Below the pieces are notes generated by a model that was not told the DNA's origin, did not search any database, and worked only from the letters and a program-made list of their open reading frames with translations. Shown here in pieces: positions 390-27,405 of a DNA stretch of 27,405 bases. The stretch covers positions 1 to 27,405 of the forward strand of contig JBMSSC010000024.1 of the NCBI GenBank assembly GCA_049424145.1, given 5' to 3'. Position numbers and translations under genes: made by a program. This stretch comes from Bdellovibrionia bacterium (GTDB lineage: Bacteria; Bdellovibrionota; UBA1018). How positions within the stretch are numbered: position 1 is the stretch's first letter; every line of letters starts with the position of its first letter.

Positions 390-1811
390 TCATGGAGTCA
401 CTGGAGCAAGACTCGCGCTCCGACTTGCGCTTTTTAAACTCAACTCCTCGAGAACTCGGGTCACCTCTTGATGGAACTCTTCAGCAGAAACCCTACTTTC
501 CGGGGAAACTTCTAAGGCCTTTTTCAAAAGGTCCCTCAGAATAAACTGGCTTCCAGGCTTTTGCCAATCGGAAACATAGCGCTGGGTGACTTCTTGCATG
601 CATCCTTTAATTTCAACTAAATCTTTCAAATCTGAACAGTAATGGACTTCTACATTAAATCCAGGGTCAAATAAAACGCCAGCAACCACGCCCAGAGAAT
701 AAATGTCAGACTTAAAAGCGTTTGAAACCTTTGCCTCTAAATCCGCCCCAATCCAATTAAAGCCTACTTCAGGAGCCATCGTGTAAAGAGATCCAACCAA
801 GGGGCGATGATATCCTAATTGAATGGACTGTCTGGGATGATCCGAGCAGCCAAAGTCCGTTAAAACAGCGCAGTACTTCCCGGGCTCATCCAGCTTCAGA
901 TCTTTTCTGACTTTCACGAGAACGTTCTCAAGCTTAATGTCATTGTGAGCAATCCCCTGCTTGTGAAAGACCATCAAGACGGACGCCAGCTGTTGAAGAA
1001 TCTCTAACTTTTGAATCTCGGTTCCTTGATTTTTGGCATAGAAATCCATCAGGTCGCCATCATAGTACTTTTGAAAGACCACATTTGAGGTATGACCCAG
1101 TAAGTCGACCACTCCCTCATTTTTCTTCAGATCTGAAAAAGAGGACACTTTCTTCATCAGACTCACTTCATGTTCAAAGACCAAGGAGCTCACATCTCCA
1201 GGCTTATAGCGAAGCTCAGCTACCAATTCCCACGTCTTGTAATCAATCCCAACAGAATAGGCTTTACTAGCGCCTTCACGAAGCGGAGGAAAACCCAAAT
1301 CCAGAAACAGCCTCGGCTCAGGATCCTGACTCACGAAAATCCCCACATCTCTCGAGCGACCGTCTTCAAGACCAAACTGATAGGTGAAGAACTCCTGGGC
1401 TGAACTTTTTAAAACATCCTTGTACTTTTCCATGAAGTTGAAGAAGTTGCAAATCTCCTGAGCAGACACGGGAGCTTTGAACCAAGAGTCCATATAATAC
1501 GCGGAAGACTTGATTCTTTTTACAAGATTAACACTAATCTGATCAGAATGCTTACGGACACCTTCTCCAGACGGAGAAGCGAGAACACAGCTTAAAACAT
1601 CGAGATATTTTCGATACTTTTGTTGCGCTTCAAGCGTAAAGTGAGGAAGCTTCAGATTCTCTTCAATCCTGTTGACTTCGGACTGAATCTCAATCTTCTG
1701 CCCCGCATAACTAATTGCAGACCCACCGAGACTGACAACGGCAACAAAACTAAGCCAAAACAAACCGATTAAGACAGCCGGATTCCTCAACTGAGAGCCT
1801 CTTTTGAGCAC
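390..1811 (-). CDS. Hanks-type Ser/Thr protein kinase (non-RD, WNK-like N-lobe) with N-terminal signal peptide or TM segment
   Basis: Motifs: HNDIKLENVL catalytic loop, TDFG, GSLYTMAPE, SDIYSLG, C-terminal R (PESR). The ORF is open to 1955, but GTG at 1811 follows GGGGA at 8 nt spacing and gives a basic N-region plus a hydrophobic stretch, so it is the likelier start. Confidence 0.88.
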   Translation of the reverse strand: MLKRGSQLRNPAVLIGLFWLSFVAVVSLGGSAISYAGQKIEIQSEVNRIEENLKLPHFTLEAQQKYRKYLDVLSCVLASPSGEGVRKHSDQISVNLVKRIKSSAYYMDSWFKAPVSAQEICNFFNFMEKYKDVLKSSAQEFFTYQFGLEDGRSRDVGIFVSQDPEPRLFLDLGFPPLREGASKAYSVGIDYKTWELVAELRYKPGDVSSLVFEHEVSLMKKVSSFSDLKKNEGVVDLLGHTSNVVFQKYYDGDLMDFYAKNQGTEIQKLEILQQLASVLMVFHKQGIAHNDIKLENVLVKVRKDLKLDEPGKYCAVLTDFGCSDHPRQSIQLGYHRPLVGSLYTMAPEVGFNWIGADLEAKVSNAFKSDIYSLGVVAGVLFDPGFNVEVHYCSDLKDLVEIKGCMQEVTQRYVSDWQKPGSQFILRDLLKKALEVSPESRVSAEEFHQEVTRVLEELSLKSASRSASLAPVTP

Positions 1812-2559: not shown

Positions 2560-5241
2560 ATGAAGAAGCAGGCTCTGAACACATTTGCAACCCAACGCTC
2601 CTTAAATTTTCAAGGAAGGAAACTCCAGTTTCACTCCCTGCCTGCTTTTGCAGCCTCCTCTGGGAAAGACATTTCAAAACTCCCTTTTTCGCTCCGCATT
2701 TTACTTGAAAACTTACTCCGCCACGAAGACGGCTTTGCCGTAAAGAAGAAAGACATCGAAGCATTGGCCAACTGGAATCCGAAAGCCACTCCAAACGATG
2801 AGATTCAGTTCATGCCCGCTCGCGTTTTACTGCAGGACTTCACAGGTGTGCCTGCCGTCGCAGACCTGGCAGCCATGCGCGGGGCTCTAAAAAAACTTGG
2901 CGGAAACCCAAATCGAATCAACCCGCTTCAGCCTGCCGATCTGGTGATTGATCACTCCGTTCAAGTCGACCACTTTGGTACGCCTCAGGCTTTTGAACAA
3001 AATGCTCACCTTGAGTTCGAACGCAACTCCGAGCGGTATCAGTTTTTAAAGTGGGGCCAAACGGCTTTTCGAAACTTCAAAGTAGTCCCCCCCGATACAG
3101 GGATCGTTCATCAGGTGAACCTCGAATTCTTAGCCCCCGTGGCGATGACGGGCGAAACAGAGGCGCAAGAGTGGATTTATCCCGACACGGTGATTGGAAC
3201 AGACTCTCACACCACGATGATCAATGGCTTAGGCGTTTTAGGATGGGGAGTGGGAGGCATTGAAGCCGAGGCCGCTCTGCTTGGGCAACCCTGCTCGATG
3301 CTCATTCCTCAAGTCGTGGGCTTTCGACTGAAGGGGAAACTCCCTGCAGGAACCACGGCCACCGACTTAGTTTTAAGTGTCACTCAGATGCTGAGAAAAA
3401 AAGGAGTGGTTGGAAAATTTGTTGAGTTCTTTGGCCCGGGTCTATCCAGCTTGACTCTGGCTGATCGTGCCACCATTGCCAACATGGCGCCTGAATACGG
3501 AGCCACCTTAGGCATCTTCCCTGTCGATGAAATCACCACTCAGTACTTAAGACTGACGGGACGAACAGACCAGGCCGAGAGAGTGGAGCAGTACTTCAAA
3601 GAGCAAGGCCTTTGGTACACTGCGGGCCAAGCCGAATCGTCCTACTCCGATACCTTAGAACTGGATTTGAGCACAGTTGAACCGTCCTTAGCGGGCCCCG
3701 CCCGGCCTCAGGACCGAGTGGCTTTAGGTGCAGCCCCTGCTTCTTTTCAGAATTTTCTGACCTCTTTATTCGCCAAAAATCCAAAGAACTTGGAACAGAA
3801 GGTTGAAGTTCCAGCCCAAAGCGGGAAGTACACGTTAACCCACGGATCAGTCGTGATTGCAGCCATCACGAGTTGCACGAACACATCCAACCCCAGCGTC
3901 TTGATGGCCGCAGGCTTACTGGCAAAAAATGCCGTCGCTCGGGGCCTAAAAGTCAAGCCATGGGTGAAGCCTAGCTTAGCCCCTGGCTCCAAAGTCGTCA
4001 CCGATTACTTAGTGGAATCTGGGCTGATGCCTCATCTGGAGGCCCTGAAGTTCCATTTAGTGGGCTACGGATGCACCACCTGTATTGGCAACAGCGGACC
4101 ACTCCCCGAGGAAGTCACCCAAGCGGTCACTCAAGGCGACTTAGCCGTTGTTTCCGTCCTCTCAGGAAACCGAAACTTCGAGGGACGAGTCAATCCCCAC
4201 GTCAGAGCCAATTACCTCGCATCCCCTCCCCTGGTGGTCGCGTATGCTCTAGCAGGCTCCATTCACATCAACTTACAAACCGAACCCCTGGGCAACGATC
4301 CAGCGGGCAAGCCCGTTTACTTAAAAGACATTTGGCCTACGACCGAGCAGGTCGCTCAGGCAGTGGCTCAACATGTCACGGCGGCTCAATTCAAAAAAAG
4401 CTACTCCGATGTCTTCTCGGGCTCCAAGGAATGGCAATCCCTTCAAATTCCTCAAGGGGATTTGTACCAATGGAATCACTCCTCCACTTACATTCAGGAG
4501 CCTCCGTTCTTCCACGGCATCCAAGCCCAACCGGAGTCGGTGACCGATATTCGAGGTGCACGAGTCCTTGCTCTCTTAGGAGACTCAGTCACCACGGACC
4601 ACATCTCTCCTGCAGGCTCCTTTGATGAGAAGAGCCCAGCTGGTCAATATTTGATGAAGCTCGGAGTAAGCCCCGAGGACTTCAACTCCTATGGCGCTCG
4701 CCGAGGGAACCATGAAGTCATGGTCAGAGGGACTTTTGCCAATATCCGACTCAAGAACCTCATTCTCCCTGGCGTTGAAGGAGGCTTCACCGAGCACTTC
4801 CCTTCTCAGCAGAAATTATCCATTTTTGACGCCTCCGTGAAGTATCAGGCGGAGCAGACTCCACTGATCATCATTGCAGGGAAAGAATACGGCACCGGAT
4901 CCTCACGCGATTGGGCAGCCAAAGGACCCAAGCTTTTAGGGATTCGAGCCGTGATTGCCGAATCCTTTGAGCGCATTCATCGCTCCAACCTCGTGGGCAT
5001 GGGGATTCTCCCGCTGCAGTTTCTCCCGGGCGAAAACGCTCAAAGCCTGGGATTTAATGGATCTGAAACGTTCGACATCTCAGGTCTGATGAACCTATCG
5101 GCCGGGCAAAAGGTGCGAGTGTCCTACAACGGCGGGCGAACCTTCGAAGTTTTGGTCCGAATTGACACACCCAATGAAATCGAATACTTTCGACACGGAG
5201 GAATCTTGCCTTACGTCTTGAGGCAACAGCTGAAGCAATAA
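2560..5241 (+). CDS. acnA: Aconitate hydratase AcnA (IRP1-like family)
   Basis: 893 aa. Motifs: RVLLQDFTGVPA, DHSVQVD, GTDSHTTM, AAITSCTNTSNP, GYGCTTCIGNSG (Fe-S Cys ligands), TTDHISPAG, GTGSSRDWAAKG. GAGG RBS. Confidence 0.98.
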   Translation: MKKQALNTFATQRSLNFQGRKLQFHSLPAFAASSGKDISKLPFSLRILLENLLRHEDGFAVKKKDIEALANWNPKATPNDEIQFMPARVLLQDFTGVPAVADLAAMRGALKKLGGNPNRINPLQPADLVIDHSVQVDHFGTPQAFEQNAHLEFERNSERYQFLKWGQTAFRNFKVVPPDTGIVHQVNLEFLAPVAMTGETEAQEWIYPDTVIGTDSHTTMINGLGVLGWGVGGIEAEAALLGQPCSMLIPQVVGFRLKGKLPAGTTATDLVLSVTQMLRKKGVVGKFVEFFGPGLSSLTLADRATIANMAPEYGATLGIFPVDEITTQYLRLTGRTDQAERVEQYFKEQGLWYTAGQAESSYSDTLELDLSTVEPSLAGPARPQDRVALGAAPASFQNFLTSLFAKNPKNLEQKVEVPAQSGKYTLTHGSVVIAAITSCTNTSNPSVLMAAGLLAKNAVARGLKVKPWVKPSLAPGSKVVTDYLVESGLMPHLEALKFHLVGYGCTTCIGNSGPLPEEVTQAVTQGDLAVVSVLSGNRNFEGRVNPHVRANYLASPPLVVAYALAGSIHINLQTEPLGNDPAGKPVYLKDIWPTTEQVAQAVAQHVTAAQFKKSYSDVFSGSKEWQSLQIPQGDLYQWNHSSTYIQEPPFFHGIQAQPESVTDIRGARVLALLGDSVTTDHISPAGSFDEKSPAGQYLMKLGVSPEDFNSYGARRGNHEVMVRGTFANIRLKNLILPGVEGGFTEHFPSQQKLSIFDASVKYQAEQTPLIIIAGKEYGTGSSRDWAAKGPKLLGIRAVIAESFERIHRSNLVGMGILPLQFLPGENAQSLGFNGSETFDISGLMNLSAGQKVRVSYNGGRTFEVLVRIDTPNEIEYFRHGGILPYVLRQQLKQ

Positions 5242-13900: not shown

Positions 13901-14092
13901 TATAAGACGAGCGACAATTGAAATTTTCTTGTGCAAACGACTTCTTCAGAAGAATGATCAAAGGACATAAAAACTGGATTCAGTCTGCTCCAAAGATCAA
14001 AATTCTCAGATGACGTTTTCATCAGAAAACACATCCAAGAGGATCCGCCCCAGGAGCTGTTCTCAATCCCCATTTCTACAAGGAGAGTGGCA

Positions 14093-15700
14093 ATGAGTGC
14101 TCGTATCTTTTTTCATCCCACCTGGGATTCATGGAGACCTATTTTTCTTTCCGCTTTAATTTTAGGAATCAGTGGACCCTTTGAGCAAAAAGCGCATGCC
14201 GAAGATCCTTCCACCAAACAAATTCGAGAGACAAAAAACCCGATTCCTGGCTCCTACATTGTGATTTTAAAAAATTCCATAGCAGGAGGATTGGGAAAAA
14301 CGTCCCAATCGCGATTCCTGGCTCAGGAGCTTGCGCTGAAGAACCATTTTGTCTTAGATCGGATCTACTCTCATGCCATCAATGGCTTCTCCGCTCGCTT
14401 AACCCAAGCGCAGGCGCAGAAATTAGCCAACGACCCGAACGTGGATTTTGTTCAGCAGGACTCCCGATTCCACATGAGCACTACGCAACCTCAAGCCACC
14501 TGGGGCCTGGATCGCATTGACCAGAGAACTCTACCCTTAAATGGAACCTACGAGTACGCCCTCACCGGAGAGGGAGTCACCGTCTACGTGATTGATACGG
14601 GGATTCTGAGCTCGCATCAAGAGTTTAGGGGTCGAGCAAGTGTGGGCTATGACGCCATCGATGATGGCGCAAACGGAGTGGACTGCGTCGGCCACGGAAC
14701 GCACGTCGCAGGGACTATTGCAGGCACTCAGTACGGGGTTGCAAAAAAAGCCTCCATCGTTGCAGTTCGTGTCTTAGATTGTGATGGATCAGGCAGTGAC
14801 TCTTCAGTCATCAGCGGCGTAGATTGGGTGACAGAGCATCACCAAGGGCCTTCGATTGCTAACATGAGCCTCGGAGGTGGAACCTCACTGGCCTTAGATA
14901 CGGCCGTAGCAAACTCGATTGCAAGCGGAGTGATGTACTCCATTGCCGCTGGAAATAGCAATGAGGACGCCTGTGCCACCTCTCCTGCGCGAGTGCCAGC
15001 GGCAATGACCGTGGGAGCCACACAGAGTTCTGATGGACGCGCTTCGTTTTCCAACTATGGACGCTGCTTGGACCTCTTTGCTCCAGGGCAATCCATCACC
15101 TCAGCTTGGTACACCAGTCCCACAGCAACGCAGACCATCAGTGGAACCTCCATGGCGGCACCCCATGCAGCAGGCGTTGCAGCCCTTTATCTGCAAGCCC
15201 ATCCCTCTGCTTCACCTGAGGAGGTAAACCGAGCTCTGCTTTCAGCCACAGGGACAAACTTGATCCGAAACCCTGGCTTAGGATCCCCCAACCGCTTGCT
15301 CTCCACACTCTTACCTGAGGATGGAGGAAGTACTCCAAACCCAACGCCTACGGACTCACCGGGTGCGCCCTCAGAGCCCGCTCCCCCATGCATCGATTGT
15401 GCACGATTTGAGGGAAGTCTCGCAGGAGCGAAGAAAATGGCCTGGGAGCCCCGAGGCACTTACACCTTCATCTCAAAGGCAGGCACACACGAAGGATGGC
15501 TTGAAGGGCCAAAGGGATCGGACTTTGACCTTTATCTGTACCAGTGGACAGGAAAGCAGTGGAATCTTGTCTCCAGCTCAACGGGCTCCAGCGCCTCGGA
15601 GCACGTATCCTACCCAGCGGGAAAACCAGGCTACTACATTTGGGGCGTTTACTCCTATAGCGGCCAGGGCAATTACCAGTTTTGGTTAAAAAAGCCCTAG
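14093..15700 (+). CDS. Secreted S8A subtilase (proteinase K/aqualysin-like) with I9 propeptide and C-terminal PPC-like domain
   Basis: Signal peptide ending AHA; I9 motif (IPGSYIV...INGFSA); WGLDRIDQR; triad IDTG, HGTHVAG, GTSMA; oxyanion AAGN; Pro/Thr linker; DFDLYLY PPC-like tail. AGGAG lies 7 nt before ATG 14093. Confidence 0.95.
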   Translation: MSARIFFHPTWDSWRPIFLSALILGISGPFEQKAHAEDPSTKQIRETKNPIPGSYIVILKNSIAGGLGKTSQSRFLAQELALKNHFVLDRIYSHAINGFSARLTQAQAQKLANDPNVDFVQQDSRFHMSTTQPQATWGLDRIDQRTLPLNGTYEYALTGEGVTVYVIDTGILSSHQEFRGRASVGYDAIDDGANGVDCVGHGTHVAGTIAGTQYGVAKKASIVAVRVLDCDGSGSDSSVISGVDWVTEHHQGPSIANMSLGGGTSLALDTAVANSIASGVMYSIAAGNSNEDACATSPARVPAAMTVGATQSSDGRASFSNYGRCLDLFAPGQSITSAWYTSPTATQTISGTSMAAPHAAGVAALYLQAHPSASPEEVNRALLSATGTNLIRNPGLGSPNRLLSTLLPEDGGSTPNPTPTDSPGAPSEPAPPCIDCARFEGSLAGAKKMAWEPRGTYTFISKAGTHEGWLEGPKGSDFDLYLYQWTGKQWNLVSSSTGSSASEHVSYPAGKPGYYIWGVYSYSGQGNYQFWLKKP

Positions 15701-15804: not shown

Positions 15805-17079
15805 TTAAGGACTCAGCCCCGGAGGATGAAACTGCTCTTCCTCGGTTGAGCCCCGAAGGGCTTGAGTGGACAGTCTTCCTTGCGTGATGATCTGTGCCAA
15901 CTCGTCAAAGTAGCCCGTGCCGACAAACCGCTGGTGAGTTGTTGCTTGGTACCCGATCTTTTCTGATTCATACTCCTGGGCCTGATACTCAGCATAAGCT
16001 GTCATTCCGCTCTTGCAGTAGGCTTGAGCCAGATGAAACATACTGAAATTCAGCGTATGAAAACCTGCTAAAGTCACAAACTGAAATCGGTAACCTAGGC
16101 TACCTAGTTGTTTCTGAAACTCAGCAATGGCCGGCTGATCGAGTTTCTTTTTCCAATGAAACGAGGGGGAGCAATTATAGGCCAGCCATTTGTTTGGGTA
16201 ATGCGCATGCACGGCTTGAGCAAAACGTTTTGCCTCCTCTAGGTTCGGTTCGGACGTCTCACACCACAAGAGATCCGCATAAGGGGCATAAGCTAAAGCC
16301 CGAGCAATGGCACACTCCAAGCCCCCCCGGATCCGATAGAATCCCTCTGTCGTCCGCTCCTGAGTCAAAAATGGGCGATCCCTGGGATCAATGTCACTCG
16401 TTAAAAGAAAGGCACCATTGGCATCCGTGCGCGCGATGATCAGCGTGGGCACTCCACAGACATCCGACGCCAAACGGGCAGCAATCAGTTTTTGAATCAA
16501 CTCCTCAGTGGGAACTAAGACCTTACCTCCCATGTGACCACACTTTTTGGCGGATGCCAGTTGGTCCTCCAAGTGAATCGCCGCTGCTCCAGCCTCAATG
16601 AGGGAGCGCGTGAGTTCATAGGTATTTAAGACTCCTCCAAATCCCGCCTCAGCATCAGCCACTAAGGGGGCAAACCAATTTGCAGGCCGATTGATTTTTC
16701 CATCCAAATAACTGATTTGATCGGCTCGTTGAAGCGCATGCTGAATTCGTCTCACCACTTGAGGCACGCTATCCACCGGGTATAAACTTAAATCTGGATA
16801 AACTTGAGCCGCCGTATTGGCATCCGCTGCCACCTGCCAACCACTGACGTAGATGGCCTGGAGTCCAGCTTGAACTTGCTGAACGGCTTGGTTCCCCGTC
16901 AGTGCTCCTAAGGCGGGAACATAGGATTGACTCTCAAGAAGCTCCCAGAAGCGCTGCGCCCCCAGTTGAGCAAGCGTGTGCTCCACTTGAATGGACCCCC
17001 TCAGTCTTTTAACATCCGACTCGGTATAAACTCGCTTAATGCCGAACCACCTAGGATTTGACTTCCAATCATCACTCAT
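15805..17079 (-). CDS. aceA: Isocitrate lyase (short bacterial type)
   Basis: [11 protein letters not shown] catalytic motif, [35 protein letters not shown] 17079 follows AGGAGG, 17 nt after the aceB stop. Confidence 0.97.
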
Positions 17080-17096
17080 GAGTCTCTCCTCCTGCG

Positions 17097-18755
17097 TTAC
17101 AAAAACTGAGAGGCATGGATAGTAAAAAACTCCACCCAAGTCTCCCCAGTGATCATCTGAACCAAAAGCTCAGAAGAAAGTTCAAACCGTCTTTCTCGGT
17201 AGGCATCATCGCCCAACTGGGTTTTGATTTGATTTCGCTCTTCATTCAGGATGCGAAGAAATTCTTTTTCGGTCCATCGCCGGTAATGAATCCACTGCCA
17301 CACTTGAACTCGTGAGATCTCAGCGGTTGCGGCATCTTCCATAAAATGATCAATCGGTACACAACCCACACCCCTAAGCCAAGACTCCAAGTACCATAGG
17401 CAAACCCGAAGATTCGTTCGAAGCCCCTGCTCAGTAATCGAACCTGGTGGAACTCTTAAGAGATCGGCGGCCTGAATCTTCCACTGACTTCGCTTCTCAT
17501 GAATCTGATGGGGATCTTTCATTCCCTCACTGAAGACTTGGCGAGCTACGGCGACTAATGCGGGGTGAGCCACCCAAGTCCCATCGTGCCCAAGCCTCAC
17601 CTCCCGCACTTTATCCTGAGCCACTCGCTTCAATGCGAGGGCATTTTGCTCAGGATCCCCACGGACCGGGATATCAGCAGCCATGCCTCCCATCGCATGA
17701 ATCTCTCTTCGATGACAGGTTTGAATTAAAAGCTGGGCATAGGACTTAAGAAAGTGGACATTCATACTTAACTGGGATCGATCCGGAAGCACGCACTGAG
17801 GATCATTTCTCAACTTCTTCATGAAGCTAAAGATATAATCCCATCGCCCACAGTTTAAACCCGCCGAATGATCCCTCAGTTCATAGAGGATTTCATCCAT
17901 CTCAAAAGCAGCTAAAATATTTTCAATCAAAACCGTGGCACGAATACTCCCTCGTGGAACGCCCAACGCGTTCTGAGCAAACTCAAAGACCTCGTTCCAA
18001 AGACGTGCTTCCAGATGATTCTCAAGCTTGGGCAAATAAAAATAAGGCCTCTTCCCCTGCTTCATCAACTCATGAACGTTATGAAAAAAATAAAGTCCAA
18101 AATCAAAAAGTGAAGCTGAGATTTCTCGACCATCAAGCTGAATCTTATTTTCGGTCAAATGCCATCCACGGGGCCTCACAAAAAGGACAGCACCTGGATC
18201 TTGAATCTGATAGGTTTTTTCTTCTGATTCCCTGAAGATTAGCGTTTTTTGAATCGCTCGTTTGAGATTCAACTGACCTTTTAGAGTCTTCTCCCAGACG
18301 GGGGAATGGGCGTCTTCAAAGTCTGCCATAAAGACTTGAGCCCCTGAGTTCATCGCATTGATGATCATTTTTGCATCCACGGGTGCCGTGATCTCCACCC
18401 GTCGATCAATCAGATCAACGGGAATCTCTGCAACCTGCCAACTCTCCGAGCGAAGACTCAGGGTTTCAGGCAAAAAATCGGGCCTCCAACCCGAGTCGAG
18501 TTGAGATTGGATCTCTTTTCTCCGCTCCAGAAGGAACGCTCGCCTCTCGGAGAACTGATCCTCAAGAGAAATCAGAAACCTGGTTGCCTCAGGCGTAAAC
18601 AGCTCGGATGCTTCTAAGTCCAGAGCGCCTAAGATCTTCCAGCGCTCAGCCATCTTTGGATCTAGTGAACCTGAGCCTGGATCACCCAACAATGGCTTGG
18701 CATTCTCCAATGGCTGATCGTGTTTAATCGGCTGAGAAGGTTTGAATAACTCCAT
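17097..18755 (-). CDS. aceB: Malate synthase A
   Basis: [66 protein letters not shown]. 552 aa. Confidence 0.97.
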
Positions 18756-18854: not shown

Positions 18855-19949
18855 TCACCCAGGCAACTCAAAAGCGGATTGCTGAACCAATTGGAGCATG
18901 GGGATCACACTCCGTAATGCACGTTCAGCCTGATTACTCCGCAGGGAACCGCGTGGCTGAAGCTGGAGTACCTCGAGAAAGTGCTTAGCTGCATCAAAAT
19001 ACTCTCGGTTGGCACGACAGACATATCCAAGACCTAAGTGAGCTTGCGCCTGAAGCAAGCGATCCCCCATGGCTGAGGATAGATTGAGAGCTTCGGCGTA
19101 GTAAAGAAACTGGTCTCCCACTCGAGCGTTTCCTAGGGCAATCAGAGCCTGGGCTTGAAGGGATAAATTTCCGATTCGTTGAGCTAATCTTAAGGCTTCA
19201 GTGAGGTGCTCCTGCTGATTTTCAAATCTCAGGTTTCCTAACCCAAGGAGAGCTTGAATCTGAAGAGGAATATCTCCGCTTCTTCGACTGATGCGAAGCG
19301 CTTCCCGGTAGCTTCGACCTAAGGGAATCGCCCGGGCGTGAGCAGCCTCAATCAATGCCTGAGCTAATAAAGAGGAGTCTTGAATCTGACGGGCCAAGGC
19401 AAGGGCCTCGTGATAGTGAAACTCACCTTCAACCCCCATTCTGGCGAGACCCAGGTGAGCGAGGACTTGATGAGACAAGTTTCCCATTGCTCTTGAAATC
19501 GACAACGCGTCTGAATAATTCTCAAGCGGACTTGTTCCACAAGCAGCAAGGCCTAAAAGGGCCCGGGTTTGAAGGAAAAAATCAGGAATCATCCTCGCCA
19601 AAAAAAGGGCCTGGGCGTAATTTAAACTCGGGTCTATCGCTCCATCTGCTAGCCCCAGATGCGCATGGATCTGCAGCAAGGCATCCCTCATTTCTCGCCC
19701 AATTCTTAAAACCTCTTCATACTTGAGTTGAACGGGAGCTTCTCCTCGACTTGCAGACTGAAGAAGGGAAAGCGCTAAGGCTCGCGGGTCAACGAAAGGA
19801 GCAACTCCCTGAGCAGGAGGAATTCGTTCGTTTGGATCGGCCTCGAATTGACCCGACTGAGTTGCAAAGCCTGATGTTTCAAAACAGATCAGCAGGGGAA
19901 TAGAAAGAAAGAGGGAAACAAAGATTTTTTTTAAGTTGCTGTGAGTCAT
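18855..19949 (-). CDS. Exported TPR-like repeat protein
   Basis: Signal peptide (KK followed by a hydrophobic stretch ending GFA), then 7 helical repeats with consensus YxEALxLxxxxGDxxLQAQALLGLG. Confidence 0.85.
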   Translation of the reverse strand: MTHSNLKKIFVSLFLSIPLLICFETSGFATQSGQFEADPNERIPPAQGVAPFVDPRALALSLLQSASRGEAPVQLKYEEVLRIGREMRDALLQIHAHLGLADGAIDPSLNYAQALFLARMIPDFFLQTRALLGLAACGTSPLENYSDALSISRAMGNLSHQVLAHLGLARMGVEGEFHYHEALALARQIQDSSLLAQALIEAAHARAIPLGRSYREALRISRRSGDIPLQIQALLGLGNLRFENQQEHLTEALRLAQRIGNLSLQAQALIALGNARVGDQFLYYAEALNLSSAMGDRLLQAQAHLGLGYVCRANREYFDAAKHFLEVLQLQPRGSLRSNQAERALRSVIPMLQLVQQSAFELPG

Positions 19950-26136: not shown

Positions 26137-27405
26137 CTAGGAAGTCGGGTATTTTTTGTTCAAATAATTCTCTCCCTCCTGGCTTACGCCATGGGGGAGA
26201 GTCACTTGAAGATGAGGCTCAGCTCGCATCGCACGCTCAATTGCAAAACGCGCCTCAGGATTTCTGGCCCAACTCCTACGAGCAATTCCATGATTCACAT
26301 CCCAATGGAGCATCGAGCGGAGTCGTTTTTCAGCCTCTTCTGATCCATCGATCACCATGCCAAACCCCCCGTTCATGGCCTCACCCCATCCCACACCTCC
26401 GCCATTATGAAGCGAAACCCAGGTTGCTCCTCGAAACGCATCGCCCACGAAGTTCTGAACCGCCATATCGGCCGTAAACTGGGAGCCATCGGTAATATTG
26501 GAGGTTTCCCGGTAGGGTGAGTCGGTACCGGACACATCATGATGATCCCGTCCTAGGATGATAGGCCCCTGAATCCTTCCATCAGCGATGGCTTGATTCA
26601 GAGCAGAGGCAATCTCCATGCGGCCTTCAGCATCGGCATACAGAATTCTGGCCTGAGAGCCCACGACCAGCTGATTTTGCTGAGCCTGCTGAATCCACTG
26701 CAGATTATCCTGAACCTGCTGTTTAATCTCTCGGGGAGCCTGCGCGGAAAGTCTCTGTAGCACGGCTTCTGCGATCTGATCGGTGAGCTTTAAATCCTGC
26801 TCTAAGCCTGAGGCACAGACCCATCGAAACGGGCCAAACCCATAGTCAAAACATAGGGGGCCTAAAATATCTTGAACATAGGATGGGTACTTAAATTTTC
26901 CTGGGGATGAGACGACAGGGGCTCCCGCACGGCTGGCTTCCAGTAAAAATGCATTCCCGTAATCAAAAAAAGTCATCCCGCGCGCGGTGAGTTTTTCAAT
27001 CGCACTGACCTGTCTGATGAGAGAGGCTTGGACTTGTTTTTTAAACTCAACGGGCTGATGAGCCATCGTCTGTGCGGCTTGCTCGAGCGTCAGTCCCACC
27101 GGGTAGTACCCGCCTGACCAGGGATTATGAAGCGAGGTTTGATCCGAACCTAAGTCGATGGGAATCTGCTCTTGGGCAAGCATCTCCCAAAGTTCTACGA
27201 CATTTCCCTGATAGGCAAGGGCAACCGGGGTACGAGCTTTTTTTGCTTCCAAAATCCGATCGCACAGCGGCCGCAGAGCCGTAAAAACTTCATCCACCCA
27301 ACCTTGAGAAAGGCGCTTTTCAATGGCCTTGGGATTAATCTCAGCAATAACCCCGACGAGACCCGCAATTTTTGCAGCTTTTCCTTGTGCCCCGGACATC
27401 CCTCC
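26137..27405 (-). CDS. hutU: Urocanate hydratase, C-terminal part (5' end beyond the window)
   Basis: The frame continues off the edge as GGMSGAQ. Motifs: SDQTSLHN, FDYGNAF, GPFRWVC, QARI, GRDHHD, SPYRET, WVSLHNGGGVG. Confidence 0.96.
   Translation of the reverse strand, partial: GGMSGAQGKAAKIAGLVGVIAEINPKAIEKRLSQGWVDEVFTALRPLCDRILEAKKARTPVALAYQGNVVELWEMLAQEQIPIDLGSDQTSLHNPWSGGYYPVGLTLEQAAQTMAHQPVEFKKQVQASLIRQVSAIEKLTARGMTFFDYGNAFLLEASRAGAPVVSSPGKFKYPSYVQDILGPLCFDYGFGPFRWVCASGLEQDLKLTDQIAEAVLQRLSAQAPREIKQQVQDNLQWIQQAQQNQLVVGSQARILYADAEGRMEIASALNQAIADGRIQGPIILGRDHHDVSGTDSPYRETSNITDGSQFTADMAVQNFVGDAFRGATWVSLHNGGGVGWGEAMNGGFGMVIDGSEEAEKRLRSMLHWDVNHGIARRSWARNPEARFAIERAMRAEPHLQVTLPHGVSQEGENYLNKKYPTS

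Follow-up and report, generated by a model that had tools for sequence, protein, structure and literature searches.

A kinase gene with a WNK-style lysine placement in a Bdellovibrionota genome, and its divergent family

The kinase gene and its displaced lysine

Contig JBMSSC010000024.1 of a Bdellovibrionia bacterium (assembly GCA_049424145.1) carries, within the 27,405-nucleotide stretch analysed here (the window), a gene for a Hanks-type protein kinase that lacks the canonical lysine of strand beta3 and has a lysine in its glycine loop. The gene lies at 390..1790 on the reverse strand, as do all its parts given below, and would encode 466 residues from a likely TTG start at 1790. We infer this start from a Shine-Dalgarno-like AGAGG (1798..1802, recognised by sequence), 7 nucleotides upstream of the TTG, and from the signal peptide that would follow. 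The longest open reading frame (ORF) around the gene spans 390-1955 and matches Pfam Pkinase with E 4.8e-17; the database gene call, P0003, begins at an ATG 50 codons upstream of the TTG and gives a product of 516 residues. Residues 1-29 (1704..1790) form a predicted Sec-type signal peptide, with a short basic start, a hydrophobic core, a small-residue cleavage site and a hydropathy peak of 2.7. The N-terminal region that follows (1284..1703) ends in a family-specific helix and three strands, together about 55 residues, which precede the kinase N-lobe.

Positions 1283-1212 encode a 24-residue segment with Lys at the position of PKA G55 and Leu at that of K72 (PKA numbering follows PMC1821047 and PMC5130182). 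Lys176 (1263..1265) occupies the third-Gly position of the glycine loop, that of WNK1 K233, and is likely the phosphate-binding residue. Within the same beta1-beta2 element (1257..1283), Arg171 (1280-1278) stands at the first Gly and Tyr178 (1259-1257) at the position of the beta2 Val. Strand beta3 (1212..1229) includes Ala191 and, at the canonical Lys position, Leu193 (1214-1212).

An earlier note on this DNA had claimed this very exchange, a Lys (codon 1265-1263) at the third Gly and a Leu for the beta3 Lys, together with a gapless alignment to WNK. Translation, alignment and structural model all bear it out. The note did not mention the Arg at the first Gly, the Tyr at the beta2 Val, the signal peptide or the family to which the kinase belongs. 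With MAFFT, the 24-mer aligns without gaps to canonical kinases and to 16 WNK domains, recovered for comparison from metagenome contigs, with the Lys in the third-Gly column and the Leu in the beta3-Lys column. The family profile aligned to CDPK1 gives the same register. In an AlphaFold model built with 13 sequences (predicted local distance difference test, pLDDT, 86.6; predicted template modelling score, pTM, 0.87), beta2 begins at Lys176, and Ala191 and Leu193 lie within beta3.

The rest of the domain has the features of a eukaryotic-like protein kinase (ePK). The fold is bilobed, and in VIA structure comparison ULK1 aligns over 262 residues (Z 26.1, root-mean-square deviation 2.9), with many other kinases nearly tied. 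As the earlier note had stated, the catalytic Asp and Asn, the DFG and the APE are intact. The catalytic loop, HNDIKLEN (924..947), is of the non-RD type and contains Asp284, Lys286 and Asn289; it is followed by DFG (849..857), where WNK has DLG, and by APE (768..776). Also present are Glu208 of alphaC (1167..1169) and, delimiting the stretch 492..707, Asp362 of alphaF (707-705) and Arg433 of subdomain XI (494-492), both of which vary little or not at all among 14 aligned members. Of the Hanks-type features checked, it is the beta3 Lys that is absent, Leu193 standing there. The product has an ordinary kinase fold with a secure WNK-style lysine register.

The loop segment is identical in contigs of three runs (X1 to X3, of which X1 may be the source). 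The coding sequence shows 18 differences between strains, several of them read from contigs with a depth of 2. Synonymous changes account for 11, where 22% would be expected (p 3e-4), and the catalytic motifs are untouched. To judge by this variation, the gene is under purifying selection.

A divergent family and its two lysine positions

We assembled a family of 81 sequences (44 from genomes and 37 proteins), picked by hand on a common N-terminal extension and a profile score. On a fast tree, L012, P0250 and P0260 from this set were placed outside the family. The kinase domains are mostly just 17-29% identical to that of the query, as we call the kinase in the window. The loop position nonetheless holds Lys in 73 of the 81, with Gly in three, His in two, and Asn, Ser and Ala in one each. 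Outside the family, a loop Lys is found in all 16 WNKs and in one of 40 other kinases. The beta3 count covers the 51 members with a register anchored free of insertions, the other 30 being set aside. A loop Lys without a beta3 Lys is found in 44 of the 51, the reverse in four, neither lysine in three and both in none; the commonest beta3 residues are Leu (16), Gly (12) and Ile (8). The loop Lys that the earlier note singled out is conserved among homologues, to the exclusion of a beta3 Lys.

The same note had named, as a case that would refute it, a downstream Arg or Lys in the beta3 catalytic position. Arg194 and Lys196 do lie one and three positions past the beta3 column in the query, and either could in principle take the beta3 role, leaving the loop Lys incidental. 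We regard this as very improbable, since the register is fixed by the gapless alignment and the residue following the beta3 column is unconserved across homologues, in contrast to the loop Lys.

The four members with a beta3 Lys occupy three positions in the tree. One of them, L055, is nearest to the loop-Lys member L051, inside a set with support 98; another, P0133, is nearest to the loop-Lys member P0164, without support. Because two beta3-Lys members sit nearest to loop-Lys members and the four are spread over three places, they look like reversions. The other catalytic residues are conserved to different degrees: the catalytic Asp and Asn in 81/81, the alphaC Glu in 67/81, and APE, PPE or SPE in 76/81. 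An Arg at the first Gly, as in the query, is found in 3/81 members. Where beta2 usually has Val, Tyr occurs in 2/51, and Phe in 10/51, among them the closest relative.

Where does this family occur? A class-level profile search matched 22 of 127 genomes at E<=1e-12. True members are present in 13 of these, and the other nine have only ordinary PknB- or STAND-type kinases. All 13 genomes belong to the query's own family of Bdellovibrionota (f1) and fall in 9 of its 48 genera. In a phylum sample of 401 genomes, with five candidates per genome scored, strong matches were confined to f1; four genomes outside it had matches near 1e-20 whose sequences were not inspected. Copy number varies, with eight copies in G005, seven matches in G119 and two in the query genome (G000). 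The family is patchily expanded within ankyrin-rich genomes of one Bdellovibrionota family, and it may extend beyond the phylum. Word-indexed protein searches returned almost no members, because the family is too divergent for them: one gave nine matches with only the query from the family, P0012 was the sole addition among the listed matches checked, and another gave the query alone. A contig scan with P0192 returned one weak, unrelated locus. Searches with the kinase found no match among plasmids and only generic kinase clusters in the ESM Atlas, and an RNA search listed no holder of the sequence.

The second member in the query genome, L011 (G000:C62:11026-13113), combines a GxGxxK loop of textbook form with a hydrophobic N-terminus, and groups with L047, L053 and L056. 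The same genome encodes L019 (G000:C2:22702-27189), an ORF of 1,496 residues that starts with a signal-like stretch, has long low-complexity regions rich in Ser and Gly, and carries a divergent kinase domain at its C-terminus. Genus g10 has its own expansion of loop-Lys kinases (L048, L049, L057 and L059-L065), in which the beta2-beta3 loop is longer and APE is followed by a Trp-rich insert.

A C-terminal domain of about 90 residues is common to 23 of the 81 members and absent from the query. It was seen in L013, L014, L015, L016, L027, L028, L030 and L051, with apparently two copies in L013; in P0144, it is followed by a further domain of about 200 residues and no identified type. This tail is weakly SH2-like. 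Its profile gives weak SH2 matches (VAV2 at E 0.025, others up to E 1.4), with a non-SH2 protein ranked first. Its model (pLDDT 57) has, at low confidence, the SH2 order of elements: helix, three strands, helix. The top Foldseek match is the APS SH2 domain (E 0.059), and in VIA comparison SH2 domains score Z 3.1, below unrelated folds. Pfam SH2 matched one of 14 full proteins (E 0.08) and none of ten cut tails. By eye, the phosphotyrosine-binding betaB5 Arg is absent from all ten tails of alignment A5; P0175 has an Arg there. We ruled out the tail as a general secretion signal, since all nine matches to it in five genomes lie on these kinases.

The query gene stands alone, between what we take, by sequence reading, to be an undecaprenyl-diphosphatase-like ORF and an aconitase. 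No common neighbours were found across 24 homologous loci with short flanks, a promoter scan of the locus gave chance-level results only, and a viral scan made with the neighbouring ORF, not the kinase, was empty. At 44.7%, the G+C content of the gene is in the lowest 6% of the genome's 1,223 long ORFs; the source genome is 2.69 Mb and 95% complete. Elsewhere in the window, what we read as isocitrate lyase and malate synthase genes overlap, with the aconitase nearby (15805-18755, reverse strand, and 2560-5241, forward strand). We also read a signal-bearing TPR-like repeat protein (18855-19949, reverse strand) and a signal-bearing subtilisin-like protease (14087-15700, forward strand). A urocanate-hydratase-like ORF (26137-27405, reverse strand) ends at the contig edge.

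Relation to WNK and other known kinases

With eukaryotic WNK kinases (WNK1 K233; WNK3, PDB 8edh and 5o1v) the query shares the third-Gly Lys, the lack of a beta3 Lys, the alphaC Glu and the gapless register from beta1 to beta3. It differs from them in its DFG and HND motifs, its Leu on beta3, its predicted signal peptide, its own N-terminal extension and its low similarity over the whole domain. The likeness in the N-lobe extends beyond the lysines. A beta1-alphaC profile of 16 members, run against 177,635 PDB sequences, ranked WNK3 first, weakly (E 0.036). The query and the WNK3 stretch have 10 of 24 residues in common, counted by eye, and family 24-mers stripped of both lysine columns score higher with WNKs (13.2) than with other kinases (5.8). 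The query segment alone found no match in the PDB at E<=10, and, in 24-mer scores, one of 40 ordinary kinases does as well as the best WNK (28 versus 25).

In the 16 WNKs, the beta3 residue is Asn (10), Cys (3), Tyr (2) or Gly (1), never Leu, and a Trp precedes it; the query has Glu-Leu. HRD is found in all 16, where the query has HND. The WNK chloride pocket is formed by the DLG motif (PMC5346417), which is present in 13/16 WNKs versus 2/81 family members and is replaced by DFG in the query. Because this pocket is absent, a chloride assay would have little basis for the query. The WNK profile gives the query 23.7 bits, whereas the median over 42 ordinary kinases is 91.7; these kinases were chosen by similarity to the query or the family, and the family's divergence depresses all its scores. 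In the C-lobe, the query is 20% identical to WNKs and 26% to other kinases, these too having been picked by similarity to the query, and BLASTP of the query against one metazoan WNK gives E 0.29. Judged by its sequence, the query resembles WNK in its lysine placement and departs from it in the beta3 motif, in DLG and in HRD.

The phylogeny points the same way. We left out both lysine columns and ran IQ-TREE on 41 of the 141 aligned rows. The family (support 97), the WNKs (100) and the PknB-type kinases (95) form separate groups in this tree, and no family member falls in the WNK group. WNK is absent from the best 60 PDB sequence matches of the query, the family profile, L044 and subgroup A4, and the Foldseek and VIA rows listed for the query model are kinases other than WNK, nearly tied; neither absence is excluding. 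The tree places the query outside the WNK clade; it is not a WNK member and probably not a recent transfer. The earlier note had called the protein a WNK-type kinase, "either convergent or horizontally related". The WNK-type lysine placement stands, and a recent transfer from WNK is not supported by the trees, the profile and BLASTP.

Did the lysine swap arise independently of WNK? We consider this quite likely. We say likely rather than shown because the approximately unbiased (AU) test leaves a deep sister relation of the family and WNK unrejected: forcing the two together costs 5.5 log-likelihood units (p-AU 0.291). That result, together with the N-lobe profile that puts WNK3 at the top of the PDB, weighs against independence. 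Shared ancestry would mean either that the family is a sister lineage of WNK or that it was acquired long ago from a eukaryote or giant virus, the bacterial C-lobe having evolved rapidly since. It would account for the N-lobe profile and for the 24-mer scores without the lysine columns, and a WNK homologue does occur on a giant-virus contig. We nevertheless think it rather unlikely, given the fully supported WNK group that excludes the family, the low WNK-profile, C-lobe and BLASTP values, and the missing DLG and HRD. Furthermore, the loop motif recurs in the PknB-type bacterial kinase L101, which the tree puts with PknB; it can therefore evolve independently.

Two further observations concern WNK and loop-Lys sequences met along the way. 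L186/L105 and L085 are WNK homologues with the full loop motif; the contig of L186 is labelled as a giant-virus metagenome-assembled genome and may reflect host contamination or a real viral WNK. L101, L167, L173, L176 and L184 are bacterial-looking PknB-type kinases with a loop Lys and a Cys at beta3, and make up a WNK-type clade of their own; in L083, both lysines are present. Like the query, the PknB-type bacterial Ser/Thr kinases have the Hanks fold, and L101 has the same lysine swap. They differ in their architecture, since in PknB a cytoplasmic kinase is followed by a membrane segment whereas in the query the hydrophobic stretch precedes the kinase. They are also separate in the tree, where L101 belongs to the 95-support PknB set, and the NCBIfam PknB model gives the query 29 bits against a cut-off of 450. 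The query family and the PknB-type clade suggest that the lysine has moved several times.

POMK (SgK196) works in the secretory pathway. In POMK and in the bacterial CAK-chloro proteins, a choline/aminoglycoside-type CAK subfamily, the positive charge usual on beta3 lies instead in the glycine loop or beta2, a shift independent of that in WNK (PMC13519141, PMC1821047). POMK phosphorylates a glycan and has no alphaC Glu, whereas the query family keeps the Lys, the Glu and an ePK C-lobe; CAK-chloro, which does not belong to the ePKs, has an Arg, and a Phe takes the place of the Glu (PMC1821047). Eukaryote-like kinases and SH2-like domains are also known from bacteria that meet protists, as in the Legionella effector kinases LegK1 and LegK2 and in the SH2 proteins of that genus (PMC6208348); the latter paper reports confident bacterial SH2 domains almost exclusively from Legionellales. 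The Legionella proteins use Dot/Icm, whereas no VirB4 was found in five genomes here by a search that did not cover Dot/Icm genes, and the tails of the query family differ from the Legionella SH2 proteins in lacking the betaB5 Arg. We rejected a particular kinship with LegK1 as generic: the LegK1 model matches only the C-lobe of the query, with 16.9 bits against a cut-off of 550, and also responds to ordinary kinases.

The kinase family is apparently undescribed. WNK has been called the only functional ePK family without K72, with an Arg shift noted in bacterial CAK-chloro (Kannan 2007, PMC1821047). In the accessible parts of a bacterial kinase atlas (10.1101/2025.01.12.632604) and of a review (PMC12599244), WNK appears solely as a eukaryotic comparison, and the atlas main text, as far as accessible, does not mention "Bdellovibrio". 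Two reviews of 2026 (PMC13686953, PMC13519141) describe no bacterial case of a WNK-type swap in their accessible text. Our literature search found no description of the query's kinase family; most subscription papers and the atlas supplements fell outside this search.

Activity, export and possible targets

Is the query an active kinase? In PKA, a Lys at G55 raises the activity of the K72A mutant to about 400% of the wild-type level (PMC5130182); WNK and POMK are natural examples of a shifted lysine in use (PMC13519141). From the conservation pattern and the PKA experiment, we consider it highly probable that the loop Lys is catalytic at the level of the family, where it would hold the ATP phosphates instead of the absent beta3 Lys. 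For the query copy itself, we think activity probable, with less confidence. Several points weigh against it. PKA with K72M and the loop Lys reached just 1.84% activity (PMC5130182). The query has a bulky Leu on beta3, an Arg at the first Gly, and a Tyr at the beta2 Val position, where 16/16 WNKs keep Val. At the level of the family, the co-variation of the two lysines represents few independent events, with a sign test on independent pairs giving 2 starred pairs (p 0.5), and DFG proper is present in only 42/81 members, with DFD in 19 and other variants in the rest. The query copy may be a weak kinase, because two of its pocket residues have given way to Arg and Tyr and because bulky beta3 residues crippled the PKA mimic.

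A stronger form of this argument is that the family is WNK-type and the query copy is a weak or dead kinase, a binder or a scaffold, its ATP site crowded by Arg171, Tyr178 and Leu193. The PKA double mutant fits this account, as do the rarity of the first-Gly Arg and the beta2 Tyr in the family and the three anchored relatives with neither lysine. We find it unlikely, though by no means negligible. Among family members, beta3 most often has Leu, Phe is common at the Val position, even in the closest relative, and natural WNKs bear Asn, Cys, Tyr or Gly on beta3. Furthermore, the C-lobe catalytic motifs are all intact and strain variation is mostly synonymous.

The kinase is likely exported. By a hydropathy rule alone, and not a dedicated predictor, an N-terminal hydrophobic stretch is present in 65/81 members versus 2/42 other kinases and 2/16 WNKs; of the 16 members without one, several look truncated. 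In many members, no more than about 10 residues precede the hydrophobic core, and small-residue, cleavage-like sites are present. A GspD-type secretin is present in 5/5 kinase-bearing genomes tested. Once outside the cytoplasm, a kinase depends on the ATP of another cell, and the periplasm is not known to have an ATP pool. Since the periplasm would not supply ATP, export would go by Sec and then type II secretion. The Hanks-type kinase domain behind the signal peptide would then act outside the bacterium's own cytoplasm. The whole reading that we favour, a probably active, likely exported loop-Lys kinase, has in our view slightly better than an even chance of being correct.

What might be its target? 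Ankyrin matches have a median of 7 in the 13 kinase-bearing genomes versus 2 in the 62 other genomes of f1. The query genome has 24 (in C30, C52, C82, C12, C113 and others), the third highest of the 75, and the nine ankyrin-repeat ORFs inspected there all begin with signal-like stretches. We give a little less than an even chance to a protein target within eukaryotic cells, for instance those of a protist, as opposed to a target in a prey bacterium; the ankyrin matches and the weakly SH2-like tails of relatives speak for it only mildly. This suggestion faces its own difficulties. The ankyrin difference has p 0.002 by genome and only 0.04 by genus, kin not being independent, and three of the 13 kinase-bearing genomes have 0-2 ankyrin matches. 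A type VI secretion system and VirB4 were each found in 0/5 kinase-bearing genomes, where FlhA-type matches numbered one each, and an ATP/ADP translocase in 0/75 genomes of f1. Moreover, a Sec/type II substrate would still need a route into a cytosol.

Bdellovibrionota are known for preying on bacteria. An active enzyme of this family might accordingly be delivered into prey bacteria, or might phosphorylate an extracellular sugar, lipid or small molecule as POMK does. The lack of any marker of intracellular life in the translocase, FlhA and VirB4 searches agrees with such a non-eukaryotic target, as do the beta2 lysine of POMK, which acts on a glycan (PMC13519141), and the Arg shift to position 55 in CAK-chloro (PMC1821047). 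The C-lobe argues otherwise, being fully protein-kinase-like (HxDxKxxN, APE, subdomain XI). Moreover, the kinases are limited to 9 of the 48 genera of one family, with no strong match in other sampled families of the phylum, and are therefore a poor fit to a core predation tool; we consider a non-eukaryotic target unlikely. Less probable still is that the N-terminal stretch is an uncleaved anchor or signal and that the kinase faces the cytoplasm, where it would serve internal signalling like any other kinase, its swapped lysine apart. That location would solve the ATP problem, the signal call comes from a hydropathy rule, and the database gene start lies upstream of ours. Against this improbable arrangement stand the many members that start close to the core with cleavage-like sites, and the same kind of N-terminus on the nine ankyrin-repeat ORFs of the query genome.

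Our favoured reading of an exported, probably active kinase leads to a broader and more doubtful proposal, which we advance tentatively: that f1 has an arsenal of secreted, active kinases of WNK geometry, some with SH2-derived tails, which act in protist cells and whose catalytic lysine has flipped repeatedly between beta3 and the glycine loop within the family. If true, this would mean a eukaryote-directed lifestyle in a phylum that preys on bacteria, and would provide natural pairs for studying how a catalytic lysine moves.

The pattern in the family suggests that most members are probably working enzymes despite the missing beta3 Lys. A sequence rule based on the beta3 Lys would call the query a pseudokinase (PMC12599244), and would list other members likewise, because that residue is absent. 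A family without the DLG pocket could test whether a moved lysine is tied to chloride sensing, and close relatives with opposite arrangements (L051/L055 and P0164/P0133) offer natural controls. If the kinases are exported, they would need ATP in another cell, and this would be a testable lead on the partners of these uncultured bacteria.

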